A DNA stretch of 41,987 nucleotides from Alphaproteobacteria bacterium (GCA_016793965.1 JAEULF010000187.1:1-41987), one strand, 5' to 3'. Positions 20,242 to 39,910 are shown, counted from the first letter of the stretch. Notes: generated by a model not told the origin, from the letters alone. Program-made: numbers and translations.

Positions 20242-20273
20242 AGATTGCTGGTCACACAAGAACGGAGCGTCCC

Positions 20274-22700: not shown

Positions 22701-22706
22701 ACCGCG

Positions 22707-23955: not shown

Positions 23956-24564
23956 ATGCTGCTGAGGACGATCCGCCATGTCGCTTGGGCATTCGCCGCG
24001 ATCGGGACGCTTTGGCTTGCTCTCGCCTTCGTCTATCGCGCGCAGGTCCCCTCGCAACAGACGATCCCGGCCAACCTTGGGCGCATCGGCGGTCCCTTCG
24101 TGATGATCGACCACCGCGGCCGCGCCTTCACCGATCGCGATCTCGCCGGCCGCCCCGCGATGCTCTTCTTCGGCTTCACGCACTGTCCCGACGTCTGCCC
24201 GAGCGCGCTGGCGTCCATGACCGAGCAGCTTGCGGCGCTCGGCGAGCGCGGGAACGAGATCCTCCCCGTCTTCGTCAGCGTCGACCCGGAGCGCGACACG
24301 CCTGAGCTGCTGCGGGACTACCTCGCGGGCTTCGATCCGCGGATCGTCGGCCTGACCGGCTCGTCGCAGCAGGTCGCGGACATGGCACGCGCTTACAAGG
24401 CCTACTATCGGAAGGTGCAGCTGAAGGACGGCCACTACGTCATGGACCATACTGCCGGAGTCCTGCTGGTCGATCGTCGCGGCAATTTCAGAGGCACGCT
24501 CGACCCTCACGAGCCGCTTGCTACGCGAATCGAGAAGCTGAGGGCGCTCGCAGGTACCGGGTGA
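23956..24564 (+). CDS. SCO1/SenC-family copper chaperone
   Basis: 202 aa. N-terminal TM anchor, the CxxxC motif FGFTHCPDVCP and a downstream conserved His (VMDHTAG). Confidence 0.88.
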   Translation: MLLRTIRHVAWAFAAIGTLWLALAFVYRAQVPSQQTIPANLGRIGGPFVMIDHRGRAFTDRDLAGRPAMLFFGFTHCPDVCPSALASMTEQLAALGERGNEILPVFVSVDPERDTPELLRDYLAGFDPRIVGLTGSSQQVADMARAYKAYYRKVQLKDGHYVMDHTAGVLLVDRRGNFRGTLDPHEPLATRIEKLRALAGTG

Positions 24565-24588
24565 GCACCGCGCGAACGGGAGGGATTC

Positions 24589-26034
24589 ATGGCCAGCTCG
24601 CTGCGGCCCGAAGGGCCAGAGCCAATCGCTAGGCGCCGCCTCCTGATCGGCGGCGCAGGGTTGGCGCTTGCCGCCGCTGCATCGCCCGTCGGGGTCGCGG
24701 CTCAAGGCTCGGCGCGCGCACTGAAAGCCGCGGTCGGCCGGGTCCCGATGGTAGGCGACGGCCGACCTGAGACTGCTGTCTGGTGCTACGACGGCGCCGT
24801 GCCGGGACCGGAGCTTCGCTTCAAGCAGGGAGACCGGGTCAGGATCGAGGTCGAGAACGACCTCGATGACGACACGACCGTGCATTGGCACGGCCTTCGC
24901 GTCCCGAACGCGATGGACGGCGTGCCCCACTTGACGCAGCTGCCGATCCGGCCGGGCGGGCGCTTCGTCTACGAGTTCGATGCGCTCGATGCCGGGACCT
25001 TCTGGTACCACCCGCATCATCGAAGCTTCGCGCAGATCGGCCGGGGGCTGGCGGGCGCCTTGGTGGTCGAGGAGCGCATGGCGCCGCCGGTCGACCGCGA
25101 CGTGACCTGGGTGCTGTCGGACTGGCGTCTCGGGCCGGATGCGCAGCATGTCGAGGATTTCGGGGACATGCACGATGTCAGCCATGCCGGCCGCCTCGGC
25201 AACACGGTGACGGTCAACGGCCGGGTGTCCGAGGAGTTTGCGGTCCGCGCCGGCGAGCGGCTCCGGCTGCGGCTCGTGAACGCAGCCAATGCGCGCATCT
25301 TCGGGCTGCGCTTCGGCGGGCATGCGCCGCACGTTGTCGCGATCGACGGCCAGCCGGTCGAGCCTCATCGCCCCGACGGAGGCGTCATCGTCGTCGCTCC
25401 CGGCATGCGGACGGACCTGATCGTCGACCTGGGAGGGAATCCGGGGACGCGGCATCCTGTCCTCGATGCGTTCGACAGGAGGCGCGACCCGTATCGCGTG
25501 GTCGATCTCGCCTACTCGCACGACCTGTCTTTGCGCGACCGACCGCCGGGCCCGGTCGCGCCTTTGCCGGCCAACCCTCTGGCGGAGCCGACTCTAGCCG
25601 GCGCCGAGCGGCATGAGATCGTCCTCGGGGGAGGCATGATGGGCCGCCGAAACCATGGGATGGTGCGCGGCCAGCGCATGGACATGCGCCAGATGATGCA
25701 CAACGGCTTGGCCTGGACGATCAACGGCGTCGCTGCTGTCGGGCACATGCACGAGCCGATGCTTTCGCTCCGGCTCGGCCAAGCGTACGTGCTGGCGATG
25801 CGCAACGACACCGCCTGGCATCACCCCATGCACCTGCACGGCCACGCCTTCCGGGTTCTCGCTCGCAACGGCAAGGCTGCACCGCGGCGCGAATGGCAGG
25901 ACACAGTCCTCATCGGACCCGGGGAGACCGCCGACGTGGCTTTCGTCGCCGACAACCCGGGGAACTGGATGTTCCACTGCCATATCCTCGAGCATCAGCT
26001 CGGCGGCATGATGGGCGTCGTGCGGGTCGCCTGA
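24589..26034 (+). CDS. Multicopper oxidase (second copy, distinct lineage), Tat-exported
   Basis: 481 aa. RRRLLIGGAGLALAAAA signal. Motifs VHWHGL, WYHPHH, HPMHLHGH and HCHILEHQLGGMM. Confidence 0.9.
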   Translation: MASSLRPEGPEPIARRRLLIGGAGLALAAAASPVGVAAQGSARALKAAVGRVPMVGDGRPETAVWCYDGAVPGPELRFKQGDRVRIEVENDLDDDTTVHWHGLRVPNAMDGVPHLTQLPIRPGGRFVYEFDALDAGTFWYHPHHRSFAQIGRGLAGALVVEERMAPPVDRDVTWVLSDWRLGPDAQHVEDFGDMHDVSHAGRLGNTVTVNGRVSEEFAVRAGERLRLRLVNAANARIFGLRFGGHAPHVVAIDGQPVEPHRPDGGVIVVAPGMRTDLIVDLGGNPGTRHPVLDAFDRRRDPYRVVDLAYSHDLSLRDRPPGPVAPLPANPLAEPTLAGAERHEIVLGGGMMGRRNHGMVRGQRMDMRQMMHNGLAWTINGVAAVGHMHEPMLSLRLGQAYVLAMRNDTAWHHPMHLHGHAFRVLARNGKAAPRREWQDTVLIGPGETADVAFVADNPGNWMFHCHILEHQLGGMMGVVRVA

Positions 26035-26044
26035 GGAGGCCGCA

Positions 26045-26404
26045 ATGGACAGGTCCAAGCGCACCGAGTTGCCGCTCGGCGCCGATGCCGCCGAGTGTCT
26101 CCCGATCCTGGCCCGATCGATGCGCGGATCGATCGCCAGAGCGACGCGCGCCGCGTCGGACGCTTGGCGCATCGCCACCTACCTTCTTGTAGCGCTGGCC
26201 GTGGTCGCCGGGCATCGAGCGATGGCGCCGATTGAGCATGGGAGCTGGGAAGCGGTCACGGCCGCCGGCCTATCGGCGACGCTGCTTGTCGCGGCCGGCG
26301 TTGCCTCGGGACTGATCTTGAGGAGGCGCTTCCTTGCGGGCAGGCTGAGCCGGATCGAGGGAGACCACGCGGACATCGTCAGCCAGCTTCGCGACCAAGC
26401 GTGA
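26045..26404 (+). CDS. Hypothetical small membrane protein (two TM segments)
   Basis: 119-aa ORF with a strong SD (GAGGAGG) 5 nt upstream and high GC3. It lies immediately downstream of the oxidase. Confidence 0.5.
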   Translation: MDRSKRTELPLGADAAECLPILARSMRGSIARATRAASDAWRIATYLLVALAVVAGHRAMAPIEHGSWEAVTAAGLSATLLVAAGVASGLILRRRFLAGRLSRIEGDHADIVSQLRDQA

Positions 26405-26433
26405 GACCCGGCCGCCGGCCGGCGCTTCACGAC

Positions 26434-26571
26434 GATGCCGGATCCGAGGCAATGCAGTCCTGCAAGGAGCCAGGCGTCAACCGAGCCGAAGATGGCTATC
26501 GCGACCGGCGTGCTTGCGCTGAACATTGCCGCCGCGGCGAGAGCATTCAGTGCCCCGAACGACAGCTTCCC
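26434..26571 (-). pseudogene. N-terminal fragment of a DMT/EamA-family transporter gene
   Basis: The translated segment KLSFGALNALAAAAMFSASTPVAIAIFGSVDAWLLAGLHCLGSGI matches the first TM pair of EamA transporters. The frame then degenerates into non-protein-like sequence. Confidence 0.3.
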
Positions 26572-26711
26572 TTCCACCCGGCCCACCTCCCACCGACGCT
26601 CAACTGCGATCGAGCGCCATTGCGACGACGGGGGCAGCACGCAGCGCAACTCCAAGGCGAGTGGCATGTCCCAGCGCCTCGTCTGCCCAGGACGCAGCGC
26701 ATTCCTGCGCG

Positions 26712-27386
26712 TCAGCGGCGAAGCCACTCGCGCGCGCGCCGGCCACCTTCCTGCCGGCTCGACTGCGGCAAGCGCCCGTAGAGCGCCAGCAGATCCTGTT
26801 CGATGTCGCCGTCGTCGAGCGCCTCGGCGAGAAGCAGCCATTTGAGGGCCTCGATCAGGTCCTCGTCGGTCCGCGATTCCTCGGCGAGCAGCGAGCCGAT
26901 CGTGTGCATCGCTTCCGGCACGCCTTCCCGCGCGGCTTGGGTCAGCAGGACTACGGCCTTGTCGCGGTCGCGCGCGACTCCGAGCCCGTCGTCGTACATG
27001 GCCCCAAGGTTGAATGCCGCCGGCCCATGCCCGCGGTGCGCCGCCGCCTCAAACCATCGGGCAGCCTCCGCATAGTCCCGGTCGGCACCCGTGCCCTGAT
27101 AGTAGGCGACCGCCAGATCGTACATGGCAGGCAGGTATGACTGAGCCGCCGCCCGCTTGAGCCAGCGAACGCCTTCCTCCGGGTCGCTCTCGCGCGCGGA
27201 GCTTTCGACCAGCCGCATCCCGAACTTGTGCTGAGCGGCTGCGTCGCCGGCCTCCGCCGCTGCGCGCAGCGTCGCCATCTCTTCGGAGCTCGCCCGCTGC
27301 GGCACCAGATCGCCGGCGTGGACCGCGCCAAGCGATGCGGGTGCCACGACGAGAAAGGCAGTGATCGCGACCTGGGCAGGCGTCAT
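26712..27386 (-). CDS. Sel1-repeat (TPR-like) secreted protein
   Basis: 224 aa. Signal peptide, then repeated Sel1 units (AAAQHKFGMRL..., AMYDLAVAYYQGTGADRDYAEAARWFEAAA, AAFNLGAMYDDGLGVARDRDKAVVLLTQAA). Confidence 0.85.
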   Translation of the reverse strand: MTPAQVAITAFLVVAPASLGAVHAGDLVPQRASSEEMATLRAAAEAGDAAAQHKFGMRLVESSARESDPEEGVRWLKRAAAQSYLPAMYDLAVAYYQGTGADRDYAEAARWFEAAAHRGHGPAAFNLGAMYDDGLGVARDRDKAVVLLTQAAREGVPEAMHTIGSLLAEESRTDEDLIEALKWLLLAEALDDGDIEQDLLALYGRLPQSSRQEGGRRAREWLRR

Positions 27387-27851
27387 TTCCGCGCTCCCTT
27401 GCTCTAGTCCGGCCGCGCATCACCTGTTCGCGATACTAAGCGAAGTAGGATCGGCGCGGTAGGTGCGCGGGCGGCGGTAGCTCGCCAGCCCGAGGTCAAG
27501 GAATCGTATCATCCGCTTTGCACCTAGCGGTTCCCAATCGAACAGAGCCATTGCAACTGCCATCGGTCCCACGCCGACGCCGCCTCCCGTTCAGTCGGCT
27601 GCAAGATCTGGCCCCTTGGCCAATGATTGCCTCTCCATGATCAACCGGAAGCGTGCCCGCGCTGCCGTTCCTCCTGAGGAAATCACCCCAACCGGCGGAA
27701 GGAGCGCCATTGCCGGTGCGCGCGGGAGGAGGCCAGCCGCGGTCGGACGCAAGGCCAATCGCAGCCTCGGATCCGAGGCCGCGCAGGAGTGCAGTGCGCA
27801 CCACACCACGCTCAGGAGCAGCTTTGGAACGTCAGTCCTCTCGGTCGGCAG

Positions 27852-30800
27852 CTATCCGCCTCGCGGGCTTGCCAGCCGCGCATGCGACCGAGCCAGCTCC
27901 GCACCCTTGACCAGAGCGTAGATCGCCGGGATCACCGCAAGCGTCAGCAGGGTCGAGCTGACCATGCCGCCGATCATCGGCACGGCGATGCGCTGCATCA
28001 CCTCGGAGCCCGTGCCGGTGCTCCAGAGGATGGGCAGCAAGCCGGCCATGATGGCGGTGACCGTCATCATCTTCGGCCGCACGCGCTCGACCGCTCCCTC
28101 CATGATCGCGGCGTCGAGGTCGGCCTGGCCGGGCGCGTGGCCAGCCGCGGCGCAGCGCACCTGCGCGTCGCGCCAGGCGTGGTCGAGATAGACCAGCATG
28201 ACGACGCCGGTCTCGGCGGCGACGCCGGCCAGCGCGATGAAGCCGACTGCAACCGCCACGCTCATGTTGAACCCCAGCCAATCCATCAGCCAGAGGCCGC
28301 CGACCAAGGCGAAGGGCAGCGACAGCATGACGATCAGTGTCTCCGGCAAGCGGCGGAAATTGAGGTAGAGCAGCACGAGGACGATCAGCAGCGTGACGGG
28401 CACGACGACGGCGAGCCTCGCTTTGGCGCGCTCCAGGGATTCGAATTGCCCGGACCACTCGACATAGGTGCCGGACGGGAGCGCGACCTGCGCCGCGACG
28501 GCGCGCCGCGCCTCCTCGACGTAGCCGCCGAGGTCGCGGCCGCGCAAATCGACGAATATGTAGACGGCGAGCCGGGCGTTCTCCGTCCGGATCGTGGCCG
28601 GCCCCTGAGCCAGCCGCACGGACGCGAGCTGGCCCAGCGGGATCATGGCGCCGCCGGGCGCGTCGACGAGCACCTGCGTGGCGATCGCCTGCGGATCGGA
28701 GCGCAGGTCGCGCGGGTAGCGGACGTTGACCGTGAAGCGCTCGCGTCCTTCGACTGTGGTGGTGACGGCCTCGCCGCCGATGGCGCCGCGCACCGCCTCC
28801 TGGAAAGCCTCGATCGTGACGCCGAGGCGCGCCAAGGCCGGGCGATCCGGCTCGATGTCCAAGTAGTAGCCGCCGATCACGCGCTCGGCGAATGCGCTGG
28901 ATGTGCCTGGGACGGTCCGGACCGCGGCCTCCACTGCACGCGCCAGGCGCTCCATTTCCGCCAGGTCGCGGCCGTACAGCTTGATGCCGACCGGCGTGCG
29001 GATGCCGGTCGCCAGCATGTCGGTGCGCGCCTTGATCGGCATGGTCCAGGCGTTGCTGACGCCGGGAAGTCGCAGCGCAGCGTCCATCTCGCCGATCAGC
29101 GTGTCGATGGTCATGCCCCGGCGCCACTCGCCCGCAGGCTTCAGGTTGATTACGGTCTCGAACATCTCCGTCGGCGCGGGATCGGTCGCCGTGGCGGCGC
29201 GTCCGGCCTTGCCGTAGACCGAGGCGACTTCCGGGAACGACTTGATGATCTTGCCTTGAGTCTGCAGGAGCTCCGCCGCCTTGGTGACCGACAGCCCAGG
29301 CAGCGTCACTGGCATGTAGAGCAGGGTTCCCTCGTTCAGAGTCGGCATGAACTCCGTCCCGAGGCGCTGAAGCGGGACGAGCGCGCCCGCCAGCACTGCG
29401 ACCGCCAGGAGGATCGTCGCGATCTTGGCGCGCAGCACGAGAGTGATGACCGGGCGGTAGAGCCAGATGAGCGCACGGTTCAAGGGATTGCGCCGCTCCG
29501 GCAGGATGCGTCCGCGCACGAGCAGCAGCATGAGCACCGGCACGAGCGTGACCGAGAGCAGCGCGGCGCCTGCCATGGCGAAGCTCTTGGTGAAGGCCAG
29601 CGGCTTGAACATCCGGCCTTCCTGCGACTCCAGGGCGAAGATCGGCAGGAACGATACCGTGATGATCAGCAGGCTGAAGAACAGCGCCGGACCGACCTCG
29701 CAGGCCGCCTTGACCAGGACCTTGGCCCGCGGCTCGCCCGGCGCCGCGCGCTCCAGCCGCTTGTGCGCGTTCTCGACCATGACGATCGCGGCGTCGACCA
29801 TGGCGCCCATGGCGATGGCGATGCCGCCGAGGCTCATGATGTTGGACGACATGCCGAGCGCGTCCATCAGCAGGATCGCGCCGAGGACGCCCACCGGCAG
29901 CATCAGGATCGCAACCAGCGCGCTGCGCAGGTGAAGCAGGAAGACGACGCAGACGAGCGCCACGACCAGGCTCTCTTCGACCAGCGTCGCCGCCAGCGTG
30001 GCGACGGCGCGGCCGATCAGCTCCGACCGGTCGTAGACCGCCTCGATCGCGACGCCCTCGGGCAGGCTCGAGGCGATCTCCGCCAGGCGCGCGCGCGCGC
30101 CCTTGATGACATCGAGCGCGTTCTGTCCGAAGCGCTGCAGGACGATGCCGCCGGCCGCCTCGCCCTCGCCGTTCAGCTCAGCGATGCCGCGCCGCTCGTC
30201 CGGCCCGACCTCGACCCGCGCCACGTCGCGCAGCAGCACCGGCGCGCCGCGCTCCGCCTTGAGCACAATCTGCTCGATGTCGGCGATGCCGCGCAGATAG
30301 CCGCGGCCGCGCACGACGAACTCGGTCTCCGCCAGCTCGACGACACGCCCGCCGACGTCCGTGTTGCTAGCACGGATCGCCTGCGTCACGCGGCCGAACG
30401 GGATGCCGTAGGCCTGCAGCCGGCGCGGATCGACCACCACCTGGTACTGCTTGACGAAGCCGCCGATGCTGGCGACCTCGGCGACGCCCTCGGACTTGGC
30501 CAGCGCATAGCGGACGTGCCAATCCTGGATCGTGCGCAGCTCCGCCAGCGACCGCTGCGCGCCGGTCACGACGTACTGGTACACCCAGCCGACGCCGGTG
30601 GCGTCGGGGCCGAGCGCCGGCACGGCCCCCGCCGGCAAGCGGCGCGCGGCGACGTTCAGGTACTCCAGCACGCGCGAGCGCGCCCAGTAGATGTCGGTGC
30701 CGTCGGCGAAGATGACGTAGACGAAGCTGACGCCGAAGAATGAGAAGCCGCGCACGACCTTCGACTTCGGCACGGAGAGCAAGGCCGTCGCCAGCGGGTA

Positions 30801-30998
30801 GGTGACTTGGTCCTCGACCACCTGCGGCGCCTGGCCCGGGAACTCCGTGTAGACGATCACCTGGACGTCGGAGAGGTCGGGGATGGCGTCGAGCGGTATG
30901 CGGGTCACGGCGAGAGCGCCGGCACCGACGACGAAGGCGGTCGCCAGCAGGACGAGGAAGCGGTTGGCAGCCGACCAGCGGATCAGGGCGGCGATCAT
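27852..30998 (-). CDS. cusA: CusA/CzcA-family heavy-metal efflux RND transporter
   Basis: 1048 aa with 12-TM RND architecture and an HME-RND type N-terminus (MIAALIRWSAANRFLVLLATAFV...). Its start overlaps the adaptor gene stop. Confidence 0.93.
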   Translation of the reverse strand: MIAALIRWSAANRFLVLLATAFVVGAGALAVTRIPLDAIPDLSDVQVIVYTEFPGQAPQVVEDQVTYPLATALLSVPKSKVVRGFSFFGVSFVYVIFADGTDIYWARSRVLEYLNVAARRLPAGAVPALGPDATGVGWVYQYVVTGAQRSLAELRTIQDWHVRYALAKSEGVAEVASIGGFVKQYQVVVDPRRLQAYGIPFGRVTQAIRASNTDVGGRVVELAETEFVVRGRGYLRGIADIEQIVLKAERGAPVLLRDVARVEVGPDERRGIAELNGEGEAAGGIVLQRFGQNALDVIKGARARLAEIASSLPEGVAIEAVYDRSELIGRAVATLAATLVEESLVVALVCVVFLLHLRSALVAILMLPVGVLGAILLMDALGMSSNIMSLGGIAIAMGAMVDAAIVMVENAHKRLERAAPGEPRAKVLVKAACEVGPALFFSLLIITVSFLPIFALESQEGRMFKPLAFTKSFAMAGAALLSVTLVPVLMLLLVRGRILPERRNPLNRALIWLYRPVITLVLRAKIATILLAVAVLAGALVPLQRLGTEFMPTLNEGTLLYMPVTLPGLSVTKAAELLQTQGKIIKSFPEVASVYGKAGRAATATDPAPTEMFETVINLKPAGEWRRGMTIDTLIGEMDAALRLPGVSNAWTMPIKARTDMLATGIRTPVGIKLYGRDLAEMERLARAVEAAVRTVPGTSSAFAERVIGGYYLDIEPDRPALARLGVTIEAFQEAVRGAIGGEAVTTTVEGRERFTVNVRYPRDLRSDPQAIATQVLVDAPGGAMIPLGQLASVRLAQGPATIRTENARLAVYIFVDLRGRDLGGYVEEARRAVAAQVALPSGTYVEWSGQFESLERAKARLAVVVPVTLLIVLVLLYLNFRRLPETLIVMLSLPFALVGGLWLMDWLGFNMSVAVAVGFIALAGVAAETGVVMLVYLDHAWRDAQVRCAAAGHAPGQADLDAAIMEGAVERVRPKMMTVTAIMAGLLPILWSTGTGSEVMQRIAVPMIGGMVSSTLLTLAVIPAIYALVKGAELARSHARLASPRGG

Positions 30999-32458
30999 GG
31001 GCGCCGCTCCGCTCGCGCTGGGTCGTGCCCGGCCTTGTCCTGCGGCGCGCCGGCGACGAAGCTGCCGAGCGCTGCTTTCAGGTTGCTCTCGGCGTCGATA
31101 AGGAAGGTGGCGCTGACGACGACGCTCTCGCCCTCGGCGACGCCGTCCAGGATCTCGACATGCTCGGCCGAACGCGCGCCGAGCGCGACCGCACGCGGCT
31201 CGAAGCGTCCCTCGCCGCGCTCGACCAGGACGGCCTGGCGCGTGCCGCTGTCGAGCACGGCCGACACCGGCACGGTCACGCCGCCCTTGCCGACAGGCGC
31301 GGACAGGGCGACGGTCGCGAACATGTCGAGCTTCAGCTGGCCTTCAGGATTCGCGACCTCGATGCGCAGCCGCCCGGTGCGCGTGGCCGGGTCGATGTCG
31401 GGATAGACGAAGCCGACGCGCCCGTCGAAAGTCCGGCCCGGATAGGCGGCGACCTGCACCTGCGCGCTTTGGCCCGCGGCCACGATGCCTAGGTCCTGCT
31501 CGAAGACGTCGGCGACGACCCAGACATGAGCGAGGTCGACGATGCGATAGAGCGGTTCGCCCGGGGCAAAGCGCATGCCGAGCACCGCCATCTTCTCGAT
31601 CACCGTGCCCTCGCGCAGCGCCCGCAACACGACGACGCCGGCCGCCGCGTCGTCGCGCAGCACCTCGCGCGCCTGCTCGTCCGAAAGGCCGAGCAACTTG
31701 AGGCGCGCGATCGCGCTGGCGGCGGCGCCGGGCGTCTGCGCGGCGGCGCCGCTGCGGCTGGCGAGGCCGAGTTGGGCGAGCGCCCTGGTCACGTCCGGGC
31801 TGTAGACCTCCATCAGGGTCTCGCCGCGCCGGACCGCCTGCCCGGTCGTGCCGACCGCCAGGCGCTCGATCCAGCCCTCGAAGCGCGTGGTGACGACCAG
31901 CTCGCGGCGCTCGTCGATCCGCACTGTCCCTGTCGCCCGGATCGTCCGCGCGAGCGCGCGCCGCGCCGCCGTCTCGGTGCGCACGCCCAGGCGCTGCACC
32001 TTGTCCAAGCTGACCCTGACCTCCCCGGCGCCCTCCGGCTCGTCGCCTTCGTACACGGCGATATAGTCCATCCCCATCCAGTCCTTCTTCGGGACCGGTG
32101 ACGTGTCCGGCAGGCCCATCGGGTTGCGGTAGTAGAGGATGCGACGCTGCCCGGCCCCGCTTCCTGATGCCGCTGCCTGGCGCGTCTTTGCGTCGGCGGC
32201 ACCCGTGCTCGCCTCTTCGCTCTCGTGGACCGGAATGTAAGGACGACCATCCTCCGCACGCGCTGGATCGGCGGCGTAGAGAGGCAAGCCGTCGGGATGC
32301 CGGTAGTAGATGATCGGCCCAGCGGGCACCGCCGCAGGCGCGGAGGGCCCCATGGTCGCGCGCGGCGGTTGGCCAGCGCCGGAGCGTCCGAGGAGATAGC
32401 CTCCGCCGGCAGCGGCCAGCAACGCGGCCGGGACCAGCCACCAGGCCAGCCGGCTCAT
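30995..32458 (-). CDS. cusB: CusB-like periplasmic adaptor (membrane fusion protein)
   Basis: Internal ATG at 32458 (MSRLAWWLVPAALL). N-terminal metal-binding-type motifs YYRHPDGLP and YYRNPMGLPDTSPVPKKDWMGMDY. HlyD/beta-barrel segments follow. Confidence 0.88.
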   Translation of the reverse strand: MSRLAWWLVPAALLAAAGGGYLLGRSGAGQPPRATMGPSAPAAVPAGPIIYYRHPDGLPLYAADPARAEDGRPYIPVHESEEASTGAADAKTRQAAASGSGAGQRRILYYRNPMGLPDTSPVPKKDWMGMDYIAVYEGDEPEGAGEVRVSLDKVQRLGVRTETAARRALARTIRATGTVRIDERRELVVTTRFEGWIERLAVGTTGQAVRRGETLMEVYSPDVTRALAQLGLASRSGAAAQTPGAAASAIARLKLLGLSDEQAREVLRDDAAAGVVVLRALREGTVIEKMAVLGMRFAPGEPLYRIVDLAHVWVVADVFEQDLGIVAAGQSAQVQVAAYPGRTFDGRVGFVYPDIDPATRTGRLRIEVANPEGQLKLDMFATVALSAPVGKGGVTVPVSAVLDSGTRQAVLVERGEGRFEPRAVALGARSAEHVEILDGVAEGESVVVSATFLIDAESNLKAALGSFVAGAPQDKAGHDPARAERRP

Positions 32459-32862
32459 TGCTGGCCCCTGAAGACGATCTCGCTCCGGACCGTCCCGGTC
32501 TCGCCTTGCACCTTGGCGCCGAGCGAAAGCCGCCATTTGCCGTCCATCGTCAGCTTGGCCTTGAAGCGGTAGGTGCCAGGCTCGCTCGACGGGAGCTGCT
32601 CCACCGGCACCGTCATGGCCGCCATGTCGTCCGGCGCCATGTCCAGGCGCCTGGCGAAGATCACGGCGTCGGGCACAGGCGAGCCATCTGCCTTGCGCAC
32701 GAGTTGCACGACCAGGACGATGCCGCCGCCGGCTGGGCTTTCGCTGCCGACCAGCTTGAACTCGAAGTCCTTGATGTCAGCGCCGGCCGGTCGAAGGCAT
32801 GTCGCGGACAGCAAGATGACGAAGGCCGCACCGATGGCGGCCGCGAACTTGTTCACCGACAT
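32455..32862 (-). CDS. FixH/YtkA-like periplasmic protein
   Basis: 135 aa. Signal anchor, then a beta-rich domain ending in GTYRFKAKLTMDGKWRLSLGAKVQGE. Its stop overlaps the cusB start. Confidence 0.6.
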   Translation of the reverse strand: MSVNKFAAAIGAAFVILLSATCLRPAGADIKDFEFKLVGSESPAGGGIVLVVQLVRKADGSPVPDAVIFARRLDMAPDDMAAMTVPVEQLPSSEPGTYRFKAKLTMDGKWRLSLGAKVQGETGTVRSEIVFRGQQ

Positions 32863-33016
32863 AACTGCTGCTCCTAGAATCCCGGGCGCGTCGCCATGCT
32901 TCCGATGTGCGACGGCAGGAGAGAGCTGCGCCCGGCTTGCGGGCGCCGCACGATCTCAAGCTGCATGGCGTGCGATGTCACGCCGATGCATGCCGGCGAA
33001 GTCCGCCGGACGCGGC

Positions 33017-33367
33017 TTAGGCTCGCGGAGGTCGAGGCGGCGGCGCTGGCCCGAGGCCGCCGTCGAGCTTGTCCGATGCCAATCGGACAAGCCCCGCGGG
33101 CGTCGTCGGCCCATGCAACGAGGCAACGTCAGACCGGGCAGCATCAGCGCATTTGACGAAGCAGATCGCCTTGAAGGCGCAGGACTGCTTGCACGGCGCT
33201 TTCTGCTCGTCGGCGCAGCACTCCATCCCCTGCACAGTGTTGCCAGCACAGGGCGCCGGCAGCGTTGACGGCGCCGTTCTCGCACCCGCATACGGGGCGA
33301 GGCAGAGCGCAGCGACCACGCAGCATGCAAGCAGGCGGGAACGGGTCATCTGTCGCAGCATCGTCAT
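33017..33367 (-). CDS. Small secreted Cys-rich protein preceding the cus operon
   Basis: 116 aa. Signal peptide (LLACCVVAALCLAPYAGA) and a cluster of 8 Cys in about 40 aa (PCAGNTVQGMECCADEQKAPCKQSCAFKAICFVKC). No family was recognised. Confidence 0.5.
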   Translation of the reverse strand: MTMLRQMTRSRLLACCVVAALCLAPYAGARTAPSTLPAPCAGNTVQGMECCADEQKAPCKQSCAFKAICFVKCADAARSDVASLHGPTTPAGLVRLASDKLDGGLGPAPPPRPPRA

Positions 33368-33624
33368 TTCGTCGCATGATCCGGCGGGCGCCGCAAGCGC
33401 TGGGCATGCGCTGGAAGCCGGTGTCGCGGAGCGCAGCCGGCCTCGTCCTCTGCTTGGTCATCGTGCTCGGCGCTTGCACAGCGCTCGCCCTGGTCGCGCT
33501 GCCGGCCTTTCTGCTGCGCTGCGCGGTCGCTGGCGCCGGGAGGCCGGTTCAGGCGGCAAGCGCTGTCGACATCGCCGCGACGGGGGGGGCGCGGGCCTCG
33601 CCGGCGTCTGGCAGCATCGTCACC

Positions 33625-33842
33625 ATGCCGCTCCCGCTGCCGCTTGGCGCCCTGCAAGCCCTCGGCGCCGCCTTGGCCTTCGGGCTGAGCACGCCGGTCG
33701 CCACGTCCACGACGAGCACCACGCTCACGCGCACGGCGCTGAGAATCCTCCCGGCGAGCCGCACGCGCATTGGCACGAGCACGGGCGCCACCTGCATCGG
33801 CACCAGCACTTCCCCGACCTGCATCACCGCCACGGGCACTGA
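33625..33842 (+). pseudogene. Rearranged DMT/EamA transporter remnant with a His-rich tail
   Basis: One frame gives MPLPLPLGALQALGAALAFGLSTPVA (EamA N-terminus). A second frame continues HDEHHAHAHGAENPPGEPHAHWHEHGRHLHRHQHFPDLHHRHGH and stops at 33842. The two parts are out of frame, which implies an internal deletion. Confidence 0.3.
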
Positions 33843-33865
33843 CGCGCCGGCCCGGGGGCCGGACG

Positions 33866-34123
33866 TCAGAGGAACTTCGCGATCTCATCGTTCAAGAGCC
33901 GCGCGCAAACTTCGGCCGGAGGCAGCCCCTCCGCGAGCAGGACCGACCGGGACAGGCCATGCACTTCCTGCTCAGATGGATCCCAATCGACCCATTCCGG
34001 CTCCGGGCAGACCAGTCAGCTTTGCGGGCCGGACCGCCCGACGACAGCCCGTCCGGCCTCGATCAAGTAGCCGCAGTCAGGCTCCAGGCTCGATGCCTCG
34101 ATGTCAACGCTGGCGGTGCTCAT
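33866..34123 (-). pseudogene. Truncated, frameshifted paralogue of the DEDDh exonuclease gene at 1591-2106
   Basis: MSTASVDIEASSLEPDCGYLIEAG..stop, then in another frame LVCPEPEWVDWDPSEQEVHGLSRSVLLAEGLPPAEVCARLL. This is colinear with residues 1-85 of the intact copy (IDIEASSL...LVCPEPEWIDWDPASQEVH...LPPREVCARLL). The Exo II/III half is missing. Confidence 0.7.
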
Positions 34124-34233
34124 GGTGACTTCTGGGCGGCGCTTGATCATGGAGATGTAAGAATGCTCACTTCGCGGCGCGACCGCGAAGCGCGCGGCGA
34201 GAAGTCGGGCCTCCGGCACGGTTCCCGGCATCC

Positions 34234-35148
34234 CTATCCGATTCCAGCACGACGTCGGCTCGGTGGCGTCCATGGAACATACCTCGCGTACTCTTCGCTG
34301 AGCTTGGCGACCCCCTCGATGCGGGCGCGATACGCGATCGCGCGCAGGCGCTTGACCACTTCGCCGGTCAGCCCTTCCGTCTCGGCATGCAGCCGCTGGA
34401 TGAAGTTCGGACTCTCGAAGAGCTCGCTGTCCTCCGGGAACCACGTCATCCAGACGCACCCGGCGAACCGAGCGAAGCTCTCGTTCGGCTCCCAGAGCGG
34501 CATCTCGAGGACGTCGAAGCGGTTGCCGAGCTGTTGGTCGGTCTGGAGGGCCCGCGTCGCCTCGCGCAGGCCGAAGACGACGACCGGTATCTGGGTCTCG
34601 TTGATCAGGTCCTTGAGGACTCCGAGGAAAGCGGTCTGAGCGCCGGCCGAGCCGGTCAGCATTTGGTGGAACTCGTCGATCAGGATGAGCCTGGTGCCGG
34701 TTCGGCGGAGGAGGTGCACGAGCTGGTTCTGGAGCGCGGTTGCGTCACGCGAGCTCACCGGCTGCGCACCAAGCTCCTCGATCATTCGGAGCAGCATCAG
34801 CCGGCGATCCGAGCCCGGAGGAGCGAAGAACCTGATGACCGGTATGACCGCCATCTCGCCGTCGCCTGGGCCGACGCTCGCTTCCTGCACGGCCTTGAAG
34901 CGCATAGCGATCTGCGTCTTGCCGTGGTTGGTCGGCGCCTCGATCATGAGGCAGGCAGGCCGGGAGACGATCGGGCTGTTCGCCAGCCGTCGCATGCGTG
35001 CAAAGGCTCGCTCCGCGGCGCTGTACGGCACCCAGAACTCCGCATCGATCGATGGATCGAAGATGCCTGCGCCCGGCGTCAGCGGCAGCTCCAGAGACGG
35101 AGGTGGCATCGTGGTTGATTGCTTGGCCGCCCTGATGCGATCAGCCAT
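34234..35148 (-). CDS. tnsC: TnsC/TniB-like AAA+ ATPase (short form)
   Basis: Internal ATG at 35148 shares one base with the tnsB stop (TGATG) and gives 304 aa. Walker A-like EAPTNHGKT and Walker B LILIDEFH. Confidence 0.85.
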   Translation of the reverse strand: MADRIRAAKQSTTMPPPSLELPLTPGAGIFDPSIDAEFWVPYSAAERAFARMRRLANSPIVSRPACLMIEAPTNHGKTQIAMRFKAVQEASVGPGDGEMAVIPVIRFFAPPGSDRRLMLLRMIEELGAQPVSSRDATALQNQLVHLLRRTGTRLILIDEFHQMLTGSAGAQTAFLGVLKDLINETQIPVVVFGLREATRALQTDQQLGNRFDVLEMPLWEPNESFARFAGCVWMTWFPEDSELFESPNFIQRLHAETEGLTGEVVKRLRAIAYRARIEGVAKLSEEYARYVPWTPPSRRRAGIG

Positions 35149-36968
35149 CACCACACCTCCGGCTTGACGGGTGCTTTGAAGTCGATCTTCCACCGCTTCT
35201 CGGTCGCCGGGTCGCTCGGCGCGGCAGTCGCGCCAGCGGCAGGCTTGAACGGAACGACGTTCTCGGCGCCGGCAGGTGCGGCCAAGCCGGCGTCATGCTC
35301 GTCGGGCGGTCGTGCGACAGCGGCGGCCAGGCGCTCTTTGTGATCGCGACGGCGTTCCTGCTCGCGCCTGGCCTTGCGCGTGTGCTGGCGCGCCTGCTCG
35401 ACGGTGGCCAGCATCCGCTCGCGCGCCATCAGGATCTGCTCGCCGGTATCGTCCGGCAGCTTGTGCTCCTTCGCGAAACGCTGGGCAGCCTTCCATTCCC
35501 ACAGGCTGATCGACGGCCGGCCCAGATGAACCCAGTCGACGTCGAGATAGGTGCCCATCTTGTTGTCGAGGAAGTAGATCCGGCTGATGTCTCGGGGATC
35601 GCGCCGCACCGTGAATTGCTCGGTTCTCCGGCCCTTCTTGGCGCCGATCAACGGCCGCAGCGCGTGCGCGTGGTAGCGGATCTTGTCCCACTCGACCCCG
35701 TGCCGCTGCACCGAGCGCTTGGCGAGAGGCAGGAAGGTGATCCGCAAATGACGTTCGTCGAACGCTGCCCGCGTGGCGCCGGTGCCAAGCTTGCCGTCGC
35801 CCCCTTCGATCCCCTTCGTCCAGCGCGCGAGCGGGCTCGTGCCGATTCCGTTATGCAGGCGACGGTGGTAGACGTTGACCACCCACTCCGTGAAGTAGCG
35901 CTCGAGTTCGCGCAAGGTCATGCATGCCGTCGCATCGGGATCGTTCTCTCCGCGCTCGGCGACATTGGAAAACGTGGCCCCCGGGATCTCCCGCAAGCAT
36001 CCGTTGATCGTGCCGATGAGCCGCTCGATGTGCCCGCCGTACTTGGGAGCCTTGACGGGCCGGTAGTCGAGCTCGATGCCGAACTCGACGCAGGCGTCCT
36101 GCAGCGCCATTCCGTGGAACTCGCGGGCATTGTCGCAGTGGATCACCGCCGGGAGGCCCGACACCGGCCATTCGCCCTCGACGCCGACTCGCAGCAGCCA
36201 GGGACCCTTCGGCAGGAACGCCTGCTGCAGGCAGAGCCCGACGGTCAACGCGCTCGGATCGTCGAGCGATATGCAATAGCCGGCGATGACGCGGCTGTAG
36301 ACGTCGATCGCAACGGTGAGCGACGGCCGGCCGATCGGCTTGCGGTCCTGCTCGGAGACAAGAATGACGTCGAGCTTGGTGTGGTCGATCTGCACGAGGT
36401 CGAAGGGATGATCGGCGCCGGGAATCGAGCCGATGACCGGTTCGTGCTTGTCGCTCGCTGCCTTCGCGCCGTGCCGACGCCTGACGAGCATCTCGCGGTC
36501 GACCGCCCGGATGCGGTTGCGGATGGTGTTGGCGTGCGGCTTAGGCAGGTGGGCCTTGCGGCAGTAGCGGTAGACCTCTTCGATCGTCCGTGCCTTCTTG
36601 GGCCGCGCCTTGGTCAGGTGGAAGCTCTCGATGACGATCTTGATCGCGGCCTCGACGCGCGGATCGAGGCGCGCTCCGGCCTTGCGACCGCGCGGCTTCG
36701 GGGCGAGGGCGACCCGGCTTCCACCGCCGCGGAGGCGCCCCAGCCAGCGATAGATGGTCGCGACGGAGACCCCGTGTTGGCGCGCGGTCGCTGAGGCCAC
36801 GGCCTGCGTGACCTTGGGGAGCTTCATGAGCGGCGCGATCGCCGCCAAGCGCCGTTCGGCGGCGGCGCGCGCACGCGGCGAGAACGCCTCGAACGGCCGC
36901 TTGCCCGTCTTGTCGGCGGCCTGCGCCGGCGCCAACGCCGGTCTTGCTTGACGTCGCCTAGATCCCAT
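35148..36968 (-). CDS. tnsB: TnsB-type DDE (retroviral-integrase fold) transposase
   Basis: 606 aa. N-terminal HTH (VSVATIYRWL). DDE triad contexts VQIDHTKLDV, IHCDNAREFH and GHIERLIGT. SD GGAGAA upstream. Confidence 0.92.
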   Translation of the reverse strand: MGSRRRQARPALAPAQAADKTGKRPFEAFSPRARAAAERRLAAIAPLMKLPKVTQAVASATARQHGVSVATIYRWLGRLRGGGSRVALAPKPRGRKAGARLDPRVEAAIKIVIESFHLTKARPKKARTIEEVYRYCRKAHLPKPHANTIRNRIRAVDREMLVRRRHGAKAASDKHEPVIGSIPGADHPFDLVQIDHTKLDVILVSEQDRKPIGRPSLTVAIDVYSRVIAGYCISLDDPSALTVGLCLQQAFLPKGPWLLRVGVEGEWPVSGLPAVIHCDNAREFHGMALQDACVEFGIELDYRPVKAPKYGGHIERLIGTINGCLREIPGATFSNVAERGENDPDATACMTLRELERYFTEWVVNVYHRRLHNGIGTSPLARWTKGIEGGDGKLGTGATRAAFDERHLRITFLPLAKRSVQRHGVEWDKIRYHAHALRPLIGAKKGRRTEQFTVRRDPRDISRIYFLDNKMGTYLDVDWVHLGRPSISLWEWKAAQRFAKEHKLPDDTGEQILMARERMLATVEQARQHTRKARREQERRRDHKERLAAAVARPPDEHDAGLAAPAGAENVVPFKPAAGATAAPSDPATEKRWKIDFKAPVKPEVW

Positions 36969-37620
36969 GGGGAGTTCTCCCGGTTCGCAACGAGATGAGC
37001 GCGTCCGGCGTCAATGGCTGGTCGAGATCGGCAGCCAAGAGCCCCCGCGCGAGCGCGGTCCAGAGGTCCGGCGTTGCCGCCAACCGATCCGACGTATCGG
37101 GCCAGGCCGCGCGCAGCAGATCGTCCACCGCCATGCCAGGTGCCGGCTGCGCCAGCGCCAGGATCCGCGCCGCACGCCCAGGATCGAGCTGGCGCCAGCG
37201 GAAGCGGTGCAGCCAGCGCGCGTTCTCCAAGCGCGGTGTGCGGATCTCGCGGCAGGAAACGACCCGGAAGATCGCGCCGATTGAGCGTGCGTGATCTTGC
37301 GCCGCGGCAATCGCCGCCGCTCTCTCCCGGCACCATTTGGCAAGGCGTGCCTCGGGCTTGACCTCGACGAGCTCGGGGGATCGGTCCCCGGCCACCCACG
37401 TGGTCAGGAAGTCCGGCACGTAGCTCCTGCGGCGGCCCCCATCGTCATGCCATTCAATCCGGCAGGGCTGCGCCTCGATCGAACGCAGCATCGGATCGAG
37501 CAGGGTCAGGAGGACGAAGTCGCGCTCGAGAGTGGATTCGACGGCGATCGCCGTGCCTGGACGGACGACAATGCGGGCGGACACGGATCCGCGAGATGGC
37601 GTGACGCGCCGCACACTCAT
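36958..37620 (-). CDS. tnsA: TnsA-type endonuclease (restriction-enzyme fold)
   Basis: 220 aa. Catalytic E/D/K context ESTLERDF...YVPDFL...LVEVKP. Overlaps tniQ upstream and tnsB downstream. Confidence 0.85.
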   Translation of the reverse strand: MSVRRVTPSRGSVSARIVVRPGTAIAVESTLERDFVLLTLLDPMLRSIEAQPCRIEWHDDGGRRRSYVPDFLTTWVAGDRSPELVEVKPEARLAKWCRERAAAIAAAQDHARSIGAIFRVVSCREIRTPRLENARWLHRFRWRQLDPGRAARILALAQPAPGMAVDDLLRAAWPDTSDRLAATPDLWTALARGLLAADLDQPLTPDALISLRTGRTPHGI

Positions 37621-38996
37621 GTATGCCTACGACTCCTGTCTGTGATCGTTTCTTGTTCTCCAGTACCGTTAATGACACTTTTTGGCGAAATCGTGGCATC
37701 GAGCAGGGCGGACCTGAGCGCGCGGTCGACCCAGACGCCCAGGTTCATCCCAGCCCGATGCGCAGCGGTGCGGGCGGCGGCGCGCACCTCCGGCGCGACC
37801 CCCTGGAGCTTCCAATGCCGGTGGGTTCCCCAAGCGATCGCAGTCCGCGCCGGTGCCGTCAGGTGTCCCCGACCGTCCAGGCTGCGACCGACGAGTGTGC
37901 GGAGAGCCGCGAGCGTGGGGCGGATGCCGGCGGCTTCCAAATGCGCTCGTGCCGCGACGACCTCGCCGTCGTCGGTCACCGTCTCCGCGTCGAACAGGTT
38001 CCATCGGATCGCGTGGTGCAGGGCATAGGGCAGGCGCCGGCCGTGCTTGTCGATCAGGCCGGCATGGACACCGACCTGCCTGCAGGCGCCGACGAACCGC
38101 CTCGGCCAATCGGTCATCATCCAGCTCGCAAGCTCCAGCAGCGACGCGCGCCCCGACGGCTCCAGCGCCCTGAAGTCGCGGATCGGCGGCAGGCGATCGA
38201 TGGCGTGCGTCGCGCATTGCGCGACATCTGCCAGATGGGTGCGGAGCGGGCGCGCTTGCGGCCCGACGCAGAACAGGCGGACCAGCCGCTCGAGGATCTC
38301 GAACCAGGCGAGCGACAGGATCGGTCCGTGGCCATCGAGCATCGACCAGAGGTCGCTCGCGTTGCAGAGCATCCGCGACTGCAGTTCGATGACCTGGCGC
38401 GATGCGCGCTCCGGACGGACCGAGCGCAAGTCGTCGCCGCAACGGGCGCAGTCGACGAACAAGCGCTTCGTCCCCCGTCGCATCGGAAGGAGCTGGAACC
38501 CGCAGCTCGGGCAGCGGTTGATCAGGTGGACCGCGTGGTCCGCACATGCCGTCACGAAACTGAGCCGCCAGGAGAGTCGAAGATGCGGTGTGCGATCCTC
38601 ATCGAGGCAATGCCGGCAGACCTGCTGACCGAAGCCGCCCTCGGAGTTGGATGCGGCTCCGGACGGCGGAAGCCAACCAAGCTTTGTGCGGCCGTCATCC
38701 CTCTCGAAGACCGTGCCCGCCCACCGGGCGAAGGTCGCGTTGCGCAGGTCCGGCGCTGCTCGCCCGGTCTTGGCCGCGAGGCGCTCGATCAGCGCTCCCG
38801 GCGCTGCGCGGTCGAGGTCGTAGAGGCCAAGGTGATGCCTCGGGAACAGCGCCCGCATTAGCTCCTGCGGCAAGAGGCCGTTCATCTCGGCGACACGCGC
38901 GAACCAGGAACTGAAGCTCTCGTCTTGCTGCAGCATCGGGCGGCCAGGCCAGAGGCGCTCCGGTTGGTGCTCCGCGCGCAATCCGGGTACTCTCAT
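37617..38996 (-). CDS. tniQ: TniQ/TnsD-family target-selection protein with a C-terminal ribbon-helix-helix-like tail
   Basis: Internal ATG at 38996 (MRVPGLRAE...). TniQ N-terminal signature PGRPMLQQDESFSSWFARVAEMNGL. Zinc-finger-like CRHC...C..H....CPSCG. The first 89 codons of ORF 37617..39263 run through the divergent promoter and are not credible. Confidence 0.85.
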   Translation of the reverse strand: MRVPGLRAEHQPERLWPGRPMLQQDESFSSWFARVAEMNGLLPQELMRALFPRHHLGLYDLDRAAPGALIERLAAKTGRAAPDLRNATFARWAGTVFERDDGRTKLGWLPPSGAASNSEGGFGQQVCRHCLDEDRTPHLRLSWRLSFVTACADHAVHLINRCPSCGFQLLPMRRGTKRLFVDCARCGDDLRSVRPERASRQVIELQSRMLCNASDLWSMLDGHGPILSLAWFEILERLVRLFCVGPQARPLRTHLADVAQCATHAIDRLPPIRDFRALEPSGRASLLELASWMMTDWPRRFVGACRQVGVHAGLIDKHGRRLPYALHHAIRWNLFDAETVTDDGEVVAARAHLEAAGIRPTLAALRTLVGRSLDGRGHLTAPARTAIAWGTHRHWKLQGVAPEVRAAARTAAHRAGMNLGVWVDRALRSALLDATISPKSVINGTGEQETITDRSRRHT

Positions 38997-39054
38997 GGGG
39001 ATGTATACACATAAAACCGGCAAGATTGCCGGCGCGGCATATGTGCAGCAGTCC

Positions 39055-39294
39055 ATGAAGAGATCCCTAACGCCCGATGTCTGCCGCGCAGCCCGCAGCC
39101 TCCTCGGCTGGTCGCGGGAGACGCTGGCCGAGAGATCCAGCGTCGCCGAACGCACGATCATCGACTTCGAGCGGGAGGCCCGGCGACCGCTGCCGCGCAC
39201 GCTCAGGGATCTGGAAGAAGCGATCGCGGCCGCAGGCGTCGATCTGATCGTCGACGGAGGCAAGACAGTGGGCTTGCGCTGGCGGCCAGGTTGA
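39055..39294 (+). CDS. Small HTH (XRE/Cro-like) regulator divergent from the tniQ-tnsABC operon
   Basis: From the internal ATG at 39055 it is 79 aa. The HTH segment is CRAARSLLGWSRETLAERSSVAERTIIDFERE. An earlier start at 38995 is possible. Confidence 0.65.
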   Translation: MKRSLTPDVCRAARSLLGWSRETLAERSSVAERTIIDFEREARRPLPRTLRDLEEAIAAAGVDLIVDGGKTVGLRWRPG

Positions 39295-39590
39295 AGCGCG
39301 CGAGCTCAATGGCGCGACGAACTGCCAAGACAGCGACGCGCTTGACCAGTCCACGCGGATGCACGCAACTGCTGCACGAACGCCCGCGGAGAGGGCTGGG
39401 TGCAGGTAGCGCCCGCGCTCCGCACCTGACCGTCCTGCGAGCAATCGATCCTCGAAGGGCGATCTTCGAAACCGAGCGCGTACGGCTCGAGGCGACGGCG
39501 ACTGGACGCACGCGTTCTGCGATCTCGTGGCAGCCGTCACATTGCCGCCAGCGTCGGGCTGATCATCAGCGAACGACCGACCGATGTCCT

Positions 39591-39613
39591 CACATCAAAA
39601 TCTGAGAGTCGCG
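39591..39613 (+). repeat. Extra TnsB-site-like sequence in left-end orientation inside the right end
   Basis: CACATCAAAATCTGAGAGTCGCG closely resembles site L3 (GACATCAAACAGTGAGAGTGGCC). It points outward, opposite to sites R1 and R2. Confidence 0.4.
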
Positions 39614-39752: not shown

Positions 39753-39775
39753 CCGCACTCTCAATCTGAGATGTG
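39753..39775 (-). repeat. Putative TnsB-binding site R2
   Basis: The reverse complement CACATCTCAGATTGAGAGTGCGG fits the shared pattern and directly abuts the terminal site. Confidence 0.55.
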
Positions 39776-39802
39776 CACTCTCATTTATTCGTGGAAATGA
39801 CA
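39776..39802 (-). repeat. Right terminal inverted repeat, including the outermost putative TnsB site
   Basis: The reverse complement TGTCATTTCCACGAATAAATGAGAGTG matches 89-115 at 26/27 positions. Confidence 0.9.
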
Positions 39803-39807
39803 TGCGC
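39803..39807. repeat. Target-site duplication, right copy (TGCGC)
   Basis: Identical pentanucleotide to 84-88, immediately outside the right terminus. Confidence 0.85.
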
Positions 39808-39836: not shown

Positions 39837-39910
39837 TGGTTGGGGGACTAGGATTCGAACCTAGACTGGCGGAGTCAGAGTCCGCTGTCCTACCGTTAGA
39901 CGATCCCCCA
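39837..39910 (-). tRNA. tRNA-Gln (anticodon CUG), CCA encoded
   Basis: Manually folded 74-nt cloverleaf. Acceptor TGGGGGA/TCCCCCA (U1-A72), D arm GTCT-AACGGTA-GGAC, anticodon arm GCGGA-CTCTGAC-TCCGC, variable CAGT, T arm CTAGG-TTCGAAT-CCTAG, then A-CCA. Confidence 0.9.

Follow-up and report, generated by a model that had tools for sequence, protein, structure and literature searches.

The stretch of 41,987 nucleotides analysed here (Alphaproteobacteria bacterium, GCA_016793965.1, JAEULF010000187.1:1-41987; hereafter the window) very probably carries an apparently intact 39.7-kb Tn7-like transposon, whose tniQ-tnsA-tnsB-tnsC operon is read inward from the right end and whose TniQ selects a tRNA site. 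Within a small, mainly Rhodospirillales lineage the selector-first gene order is conserved, and it tracks one TniQ subfamily; about 33 loci, nearly all of Alphaproteobacteria and mostly of Rhodospirillales, were found to share it. The complete element comprises 39,714 bp (89-39802), and the transposition operon runs on the minus strand from 38996 to 34234 with four genes, listed in the order of reading:

37617..38996, minus strand: tniQ, target selector and first operon gene, 459 amino acids (PF06527, E=3e-25, full-length profile 2-142)
36958..37620, minus strand: tnsA, TnsA-like endonuclease subunit, 220 amino acids (PF08722, the N-terminal nuclease domain, E=5e-11)
35148..36968, minus strand: tnsB, DDE transposase, 606 amino acids (Mu-transpos_C PF09299, E=6e-13; rve; N-terminal helix-turn-helix (HTH) domains including HTH_28)
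34234..35148, minus strand: tnsC, TniB-type AAA+ regulator, 304 amino acids (PF05621, E=2e-46, and AAA_22)

All four open reading frames (ORFs) of the operon were coding-like in their GC content at third codon positions (GC3, 0.80-0.86). The window TniQ has the Cys/His motifs of the zinc finger, which are invariant columns in the homologs, and a clade-specific C-terminal motif, HWKLQGVAPEVRAAARTAAHRAGMNLGVWVDRALRSAL. Support for the tniQ start at 38996 comes from a WPGRP motif that homologs conserve and that lies upstream of where the automated 439-aa call begins, and from homolog alignments that set in at residues 4-16; the automated call (P0001, starting with MLQQDESF and omitting 38937-38996) is probably 20 codons too short. 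For TnsA, comparison with the NCBIfam model TnsA_like_Actin (“TnsA-like heteromeric transposase endonuclease subunit”) gave 86.5 bits, below the cut-off of 110, and no Pfam match to the C-terminal TnsA domain PF08721 was obtained in the window protein. The rve domain of TnsB scored 28.5 bits, slightly under its cut-off. In a computed alignment, E32, D70 and K88 of TnsA aligned with Tn7 TnsA E63/D114/K132, and D195, D279 and E315 of TnsB with Tn7 TnsB D273/D361/E396, which we take to be the catalytic residues of Tn7; all six are conserved in the window and in seven relatives. The tnsC translation contains Walker A (NHGKT) and Walker B (LILIDEF) motifs.

The gene junctions were read directly from the sequence. 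The tniQ stop codon TGA and the tnsA start codon ATG share ATGA at 37620-37617 (4 nt overlap), tnsA and tnsB overlap by 11 nt (tnsB ATG at 36968, tnsA stop TAG at 36960-36958), and in TGATG at 35150-35146 base 35148 is common to the tnsB stop and the tnsC start. The ATG at 36968 is the sole candidate tnsB start less than 200 nt from the tnsA stop. The start of tnsC is ambiguous, with four in-frame candidates (-46, -7, -4 and -1), each overlapping tnsB; the protein has 304 aa if it begins with the ATG at 35148, and an alternative GTG is present at 35193. Co-transcription and translational coupling of the four genes are presumed. The original prediction for this region, made from the sequence alone, had placed tniQ, tnsA, tnsB and tnsC at these positions with a TniQ-like first ORF, and both the Pfam domains and the PF06527 profile search bore it out; its overlaps of 4, 11 and 1 nt agreed base by base, and the HTH gene it had seen diverging over roughly 60 bp proved to be of the HTH_3 type, 58 bp apart from tniQ. 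Its claim of a single selector with neither tnsE nor CRISPR (short palindromic repeats, clustered and regularly interspaced) also stood. A hidden Markov model (HMM) search returned one TniQ ORF in the window and no second; no CRISPR-like array was present in the window, where the sole tandem repeat was a 78-bp coding repeat; and no cas, TnsE or resolvase/recombinase domains were detected in the scanned ORFs, that is, all coding-like ORFs of at least 300 aa and most of the smaller ones.

The boundaries of the element and its attachment site were located as follows:

84..88: target-site duplication TGCGC, left copy (perfect match to the right copy)
89..226, plus strand: left transposon end, three direct repeats containing TGAGAGTG (89-115, 176-195 and 207-226; position weight matrix (PWM) scan)
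39756..39802, minus strand: right, operon-proximal end with the terminal TGTCATTTCCACGAATAAATGAGAGTG and a second TGAGAGTG repeat (PWM scan)
39803..39807: target-site duplication TGCGC, right copy (perfect match to the left copy)
39837..39910, minus strand: tRNA-Gln(CTG), presumed attachment-site determinant (ARAGORN; 3′ end 34 bp from the right end)

The terminal inverted repeats, TGT...ACA, are 27 nt in length (TGTCATTTCCACGAATAGATGAGAGTG) and match at 26/27 positions (96%; 89-115 versus 39776-39802), and one pair of ends together with one 5-bp duplication encloses all of the element. The octamer TGAGAGTG occurs in five copies in the window against 1.04 expected, all of them at the ends (three direct at the left, two inverted at the right), and these repeats are candidate TnsB-binding sites in the usual repeated-site pattern. 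One further sequence, TGTCCTCACATCAAAATCTGAGAGTC, resembles a TnsB site within the element and is in opposite orientation to the right-end sites:

39584..39610, plus strand: internal TnsB-site-like sequence (PWM score 20.5 versus at most 10.7 elsewhere)

This site is preceded by TGTC and has the look of a left-end terminus, set about 190 bp in from the right end. It and the true right end would delimit a 219-bp mini-element, for which no matching target duplication was seen.

The distribution of the gene order was tabulated by scanning one genome per species with the TniQ profile, which gave 50 loci that were annotated by tblastn and ARAGORN (loci from this and other searches are cited by L number). 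Loci L010-L040 are all from Alphaproteobacteria, their TniQ proteins being 35-43% identical to the window TniQ, and include members of Azospirillum, Magnetospirillum, Paramagnetospirillum, Phaeospirillum, Ferrovibrio, Rhodocista and Oleispirillum as well as many Rhodospirillales metagenome-assembled genomes (MAGs). Wherever these loci had sufficient sequence they were arranged tniQ-tnsA-tnsB-tnsC, as were all complete members of L010-L037, a few contigs in the latter set ending after tnsA or tnsB. The same arrangement was found in an Azospirillum brasilense replicon (L008), in metagenome contigs L006 and L007, and in L155 and L156, the most divergent full-length TniQ relatives (31-32% identity), which came from an exhaustive search of 1.84 billion representatives. 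The TniQ subfamily is small: of 2,754 matches at E<=1e-3, 88 were at E<=1e-30 and no more than about 35 aligned through residue 431. Each sampled relative whose TniQ is without the C-terminal module has the canonical order: tnsA-B-C-tniQ was recorded in the Halomonas/Vreelandella-type loci L041-L059 and in Pseudomonas plasmid elements, tnsA-B-C-tniQ-tnsF in Tn6022, tniA-B-Q-R in Tn402, and (A)BC-Q in four metagenomic loci.

The order is thus non-canonical, as originally predicted, with respect to Tn7, Tn6022, Tn402/Tn5053 and the nearest non-alphaproteobacterial relatives, which are all (A)BC-Q; as a peculiarity of one element, however, it did not hold up, being conserved in about 33 loci. The proposed coupling fared unevenly. 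Close packing of the operon genes is a general feature of the clade, with -1, -4 or -7 as the usual values between tnsB and tnsC, whereas the tniQ-tnsA overlap is not conserved; the gap there takes values between -4 and about +73 nt among clade members, and the ATGA overlap is therefore particular to the window element and a few others. The pairing of a short TniB-like TnsC with TnsA had been regarded as anomalous, a view that was rejected: the same pair is ordinary in Tn6022 and in I-F3 elements such as Tn6677. The attachment geometry at the tRNA gene and the link between gene order and TniQ subfamily were matters on which the prediction was silent.

Variants of the arrangement were also recorded. 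In L021 (1355-8600; five minus-strand ORFs of 201-918 aa), and likewise in L025, L027 and L030-L032, tniQ is separated from the tRNA-proximal end by kilobases of cargo, and therefore the operon is not always flush with the right end. L033 (8944-15314) has two selectors around the core, tniQ1-tnsA-tnsB-tnsC-tniQ2; its tniQ2 encodes up to 581 aa with an N-terminus 31% identical to the window TniQ, at about 155 bp past tniQ2 there is a tRNA-Gln gene on the opposite strand, and the TnsB of L033 stands apart from those of other tniQ-first elements in the neighbour-joining tree. Recombination may have produced this locus, or it may be an evolutionary intermediate. Four loci from Burkholderiales MAGs (L001-L004) contained TnsB relatives of 35-39% identity in the order tnsA-tnsB-tnsC, and with the clade TniQ HMM no TniQ was detected in the 8 kb to each side.

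The literature was covered by full-text search and by the surveys of Benler 2021, Faure 2023, Hsieh and Peters 2022, a 2024 study on Acinetobacter baumannii and a 2025 preprint on archaeal elements. In these sources, no description of a natural tniQ-first Tn7-like operon was found, subscription journals lying outside the full-text search, nor was one found of a tRNA-Gln-targeting Tn7-like family or of such elements in Rhodospirillales (Azospirillum, Magnetospirillum). The large surveys almost certainly hold members of the clade in their tables, and a missing description is not proof of novelty.

With respect to known families, the window TnsB was 37.7% identical to Tn6022 TniA over 79% of its length and about 41% identical to Tn402 TniA over the core. 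Among solved structures, the best relative of TnsB was that of Tn6677 (I-F3; E=4e-44), ShCAST TnsB giving E=3e-29 and Tn7 TnsB E=5e-17, and the best solved relative of TnsC was VchTnsC (E=4e-14). Because of these TnsB and TnsC comparisons, the element is assigned by sequence similarity to the TniB-type branch of Tn7-like transposons. In bootstrapped neighbour-joining trees with Tn7, Tn402, Tn6022 and Halomonas-type and Burkholderiales relatives as references, the window was nearest to other tniQ-first elements by distance, with an unresolved backbone. The features that characterise Tn7-like elements in the broad sense were all found, i.e. TnsB, TnsC encoded beside tnsB, TniQ, the TnsA active site, the ends and the 5-bp duplication, and, as judged from the sequence, an insertion that has one orientation and a constant offset downstream of a conserved host gene.

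Tn7 (tnsABCDE) has in common with the window element the TGT...ACA ends, the repeated TnsB sites, the 5-bp duplication, a right end facing the attachment gene and TnsA/TnsB cut-and-paste chemistry, which the conserved residues imply for the window, but Tn7 differs in its 555-aa TnsC, a second selector TnsE, selectors in last position, the glmS target and a distant TnsB. The canonical order of Tn7, Tn6022 and Tn6230, with the selector after tnsC, is absent. Tn6022/AbaR-type elements (tnsA/tniC, tnsB/tniA, tnsC/tniB, tniQ/tniD, tnsF/tniE) resemble the window element in having TnsA with a TniB-type TnsC of about 300 aa and in the logic of a heteromeric TnsA/TnsB with TnsC and TniQ. Their order, however, is tnsA-B-C-tniQ-tnsF with TnsF as a second factor and insertion inside comM, whereas in the window tnsA follows tniQ, no TnsF-like ORF was found and the target is a tRNA gene instead of comM. 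Tn402/Tn5053 (tniA-tniB-tniQ-tniR) likewise has a PF05621 TniB, and a TniQ of about 30% identity in the N-terminal domain; unlike the window element, it is replicative, hunts res sites, has no TnsA, uses the TniR resolvase and places its selector last. The window element has TnsA and no recombinase domain in the scanned ORFs; a res site was not searched for.

Among CRISPR-associated transposons (CASTs), Tn6677 (I-F3) includes TnsA and the closest solved TnsB and TnsC, but its tniQ heads a cas8-cas7-cas6 operon and acts together with Cascade and a CRISPR array; with no cas domains and no array, the window element fits none of the I-F3, I-B, I-D and V-K types. Type I-B2 and I-D CASTs and cyanobacterial elements with a TnsAB fusion encode TnsD proteins that guide insertion, in one orientation, to a fixed offset of about 29-33 bp past a tRNA gene (PMC9881144, PMC10293859), to be compared with 34 bp in the window. 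These TnsD proteins have a long multi-HTH C-terminus and are encoded after tnsC, usually with a second TniQ and cas genes, whereas the head of the window operon is occupied by a lone 459-aa TniQ whose C-terminal motif is short and unrelated. The C-terminal TniQ motif, the gene order and the tRNA adjacency that mark the selector-first clade are all present in the window.

The position relative to the tRNA gene is recurrent in the clade. In the window, the 3′ end of tRNA-Gln(CTG) is followed by the right end of the element at a distance of 34 bp, and of the 25 related loci with a same-strand tRNA gene upstream, 24 had an element end TGT(C/T) 26-39 bp after the tRNA 3′ end. The tRNA genes concerned are mostly tRNA-Gln (CTG or TTG), and also tRNA-Ser, tRNA-Phe and tRNA-Met. 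Characterised TnsD-directed targeting inserts 29±1 and 30-33 bp downstream of tRNA genes (PMC9881144, PMC10293859), and as the offset in the clade matches it, the leading TniQ is by analogy the likely tRNA-site selector. The window TniQ aligns with the clade through residue 431 (31-43% identity) and has the G-R-Y-W-K-L-D-G-V...W-(L/V)-D motif. This C-terminal motif (consensus GRYWKLDGVSPEVKAAARxAAHRAGExVGPWLDxLLRxxL) is the most conserved part of TniQ and was present in 31/31 clade proteins. The module has a strand-helix-helix pattern, and Pfam and PDB-profile searches returned sub-threshold matches only, to PF07704 in 4/19 sequences (best E=0.004) and to VapB30 (E~1); pattern and weak VapB/Rv0623-type antitoxin matches hint at a possible ribbon-helix-helix module. 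All target tRNAs carry a GGTTCGA(A/T)TCC-like T-arm. Specificity may have been relaxed towards a feature common to these tRNAs, or a few residues elsewhere in the protein may retarget TniQ. Other clade elements follow tRNA-Phe or tRNA-Met, and target variation was seen also at L010, L011, L012, L017, L022 and L024.

The searches for an empty site were made in two ways. A 20-mer across the reconstructed junction matched three metagenome contigs, none with a tRNA gene or flank similarity, and these were rejected as chance matches. The host gene flanking the element (40026-41126, minus strand) is pdxA-like, and the best relatives of this gene (at most 69% identity) were without an adjacent tRNA-Gln. 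Its best match, 69% identical, came from MAGs of a Rhodospirillaceae member and of a Tagaea sp.; because this value is so low, the host is taken as an alphaproteobacterium without a close species-level genome in the collection searched.

With the domains, catalytic residues, ends, duplication, tRNA position, order conservation and tRNA adjacency observed, we infer that TniQ binds the tRNA gene, and that a recruitment chain and cut-and-paste chemistry follow. The zinc-finger selector TniQ with its clade-specific C-terminal module would recognise a tRNA gene, here tRNA-Gln(CTG), and recruit the short TniB-type AAA+ TnsC. TnsC would then activate the heteromeric transposase, of which TnsA (PD-ExK nuclease) would make the 5′ cuts, and TnsB (DDE), bound to the TGAGAGTG-containing repeats at both ends, the 3′ cuts and the strand transfer. 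The outcome would be a cut-and-paste insertion with the right end towards the tRNA gene, 34 bp past its 3′ end (26-39 bp in the clade), and a 5-bp duplication. A number of observations count against this picture or parts of it. The C-terminal motif stays the same for every tRNA target, and the TniQ proteins of L015, at a tRNA-Gln(CTG) site, and L023, at a tRNA-Ser(GGA) site, are 82% identical with the same end family, while L015 and L020, both at Gln sites, are 76% identical, i.e. less than L015 and L023. An AlphaFold2 model of TniQ from a nine-sequence alignment had a predicted local distance difference test (pLDDT) score of 59.7, falling below 50 at the C-terminus. Monophyly of the tniQ-first elements received 0-3% support in the TnsB tree and 62.5% in the TnsC tree without L033. 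No match to the sigma-70 consensus was found upstream of tniQ in 38997-39054, and the junction search yielded nothing beyond chance matches.

The constancy of the motif across targets, the adjacent tRNA type, which does not follow the TniQ tree, and the weak antitoxin and ribbon-helix-helix hints would also suit a leading TniQ that is mainly a regulator or adaptor acting through its ribbon-helix-helix-like C-terminus, with the tRNA adjacency owed to some other factor or to features general to tRNAs. Such a role in place of attachment-site selection is decidedly unlikely: the element holds no other candidate selector, the zinc-finger core is intact, and the fixed offset of 26-39 bp and single orientation match characterised TnsD-type targeting. 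It is likewise unlikely, given four intact ORFs with catalytic residues and coding-like GC3, inverted repeats matching at 26/27 and a perfect target duplication, that the element is a fixed, no longer mobile relic whose operon architecture has no present function, even if neither the junction search nor flank synteny yielded an empty site, no close database relative of this element was found (best TniQ identity 43%) and a pseudogene fragment lies directly 3′ of tnsC. An artefactual origin of the order, through misassembly or through elements nested or in tandem, with tniQ from another element than tnsABC, might be read from the loci with kilobases between tRNA and tniQ, the left-end-like site inside the window right end and the second tniQ after tnsC in L033; with the tniQ stop and tnsA start overlapping in ATGA, the order recurring in about 33 independent loci of different genera whose TniQ is just 31-43% identical to that of the window, and one matched end pair and duplication around all 39.7 kb, this origin is extremely improbable and was rejected on the conservation of order and the codon overlap. 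For the selector reading itself, an extension is offered tentatively and as rather doubtful: the loci would form an undescribed, largely Rhodospirillales family with a selector-led four-gene operon, in which a new C-terminal module of the selector, possibly with a ribbon-helix-helix fold, either reads a feature common to several tRNA genes or autoregulates the operon from its promoter-proximal place. Either role could explain near-identical selectors at tRNA-Gln and tRNA-Ser genes together with an order strictly linked to the TniQ subfamily.

Regulation might lie with an accessory gene diverging from tniQ and the region between them:

39055..39294, plus strand: Cro/CI-type HTH_3 gene, 79 amino acids (P0010; PF01381, E=7e-6), divergent from tniQ
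38997..39054: divergent intergenic region, 58 bp, candidate operator with a palindrome and an outer inverted repeat

The 79-aa protein is, by its domain, a possible regulator, and could be the transposition repressor of the original prediction; it would bind the palindrome and shut off its own gene and tniQ-tnsABC, a prospect that we consider real but short of even. The two start codons are only 58 bp apart, and the 16-bp palindrome CCGGCAAGATTGCCGG (CCGGCAA-GA-TTGCCGG, 39017-39032) and the outer repeat CACATA/TATGTG (39008-39013 and 39040-39045) are centred at most 1 nt from the midpoint between them. The only HTH homolog found divergently beside tniQ, in L021 (57% identity), keeps this pairing despite 7 kb of cargo between the pair and the end. 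The gene adjoins tniQ in just 2 of about 33 elements, however, conservation of the palindrome does not extend to L021, and the intergenic region lacks the promoter consensus, as noted above; of two protein-database relatives, one is beside a phage-type Sipho_Gp157 gene with no transposon gene, and the other beside a DUF4096 gene. On this evidence a repressor role is plausible and would not be a core feature of the family.

In surveys of Tn7-like elements, tnsA-B-C-selector synteny is taken as the norm, and the archaeal preprint of 2025 has archaeal elements keeping “the same synteny” as bacterial ones. A selector in promoter-proximal position is a natural experiment on selector dosage and expression order in targeted transposition, and its relocation coincides with a new C-terminal module. 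The presence of related selectors at tRNA genes for Gln, Ser, Phe and Met makes a tractable system for the gain or relaxation of TniQ-type specificity. The compact, CRISPR-free system of four genes in a single operon is native to Alphaproteobacteria (e.g. Azospirillum, Magnetospirillum) and could be used there as a site-specific integration tool. The advance is incremental, parts and chemistry being those of known Tn7-like elements, and constitutes a lead on selector evolution and regulation.

In the window, the selector-first transposon carries a metal resistance island as its cargo, identified by Pfam scans:

227..34233: cargo, copper/heavy-metal resistance island of about 34 kb

The island encodes two P-type ATPases, two multicopper oxidases, a CusA/CusB/CusF-like resistance-nodulation-division (RND) efflux system and an outer-membrane efflux protein (OEP), and also a CopRS-like two-component system, SCO1/SenC, a DsbA-like protein, LspA, DUF411 and ArsR. 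A DctQM pair of a tripartite ATP-independent periplasmic (TRAP) transporter is included. Three near-identical 78-bp tandem repeats (9276-9514) are located in a minus-strand ORF (8857-10659) with an LTXXQ domain, where they form a Met/His/Gly-rich stretch; the product probably binds metal in the periplasm. Another HTH_3 gene, of Xre type, was identified near the left end (770-1102, minus strand). Also near the left end, a 171-aa ORF without Pfam match (1591-2106, minus strand) has an N-terminal DIEASS motif, which may be exonuclease-like. A truncated paralog of this ORF with an in-frame stop (33887-34126, minus strand; 60% identity over 80 aa) lies directly 3′ of tnsC, and weak homologs (about 30% identity) are found directly after tnsC in L020 and L023, so that this ORF family may represent an accessory fifth gene in part of the selector-first clade.

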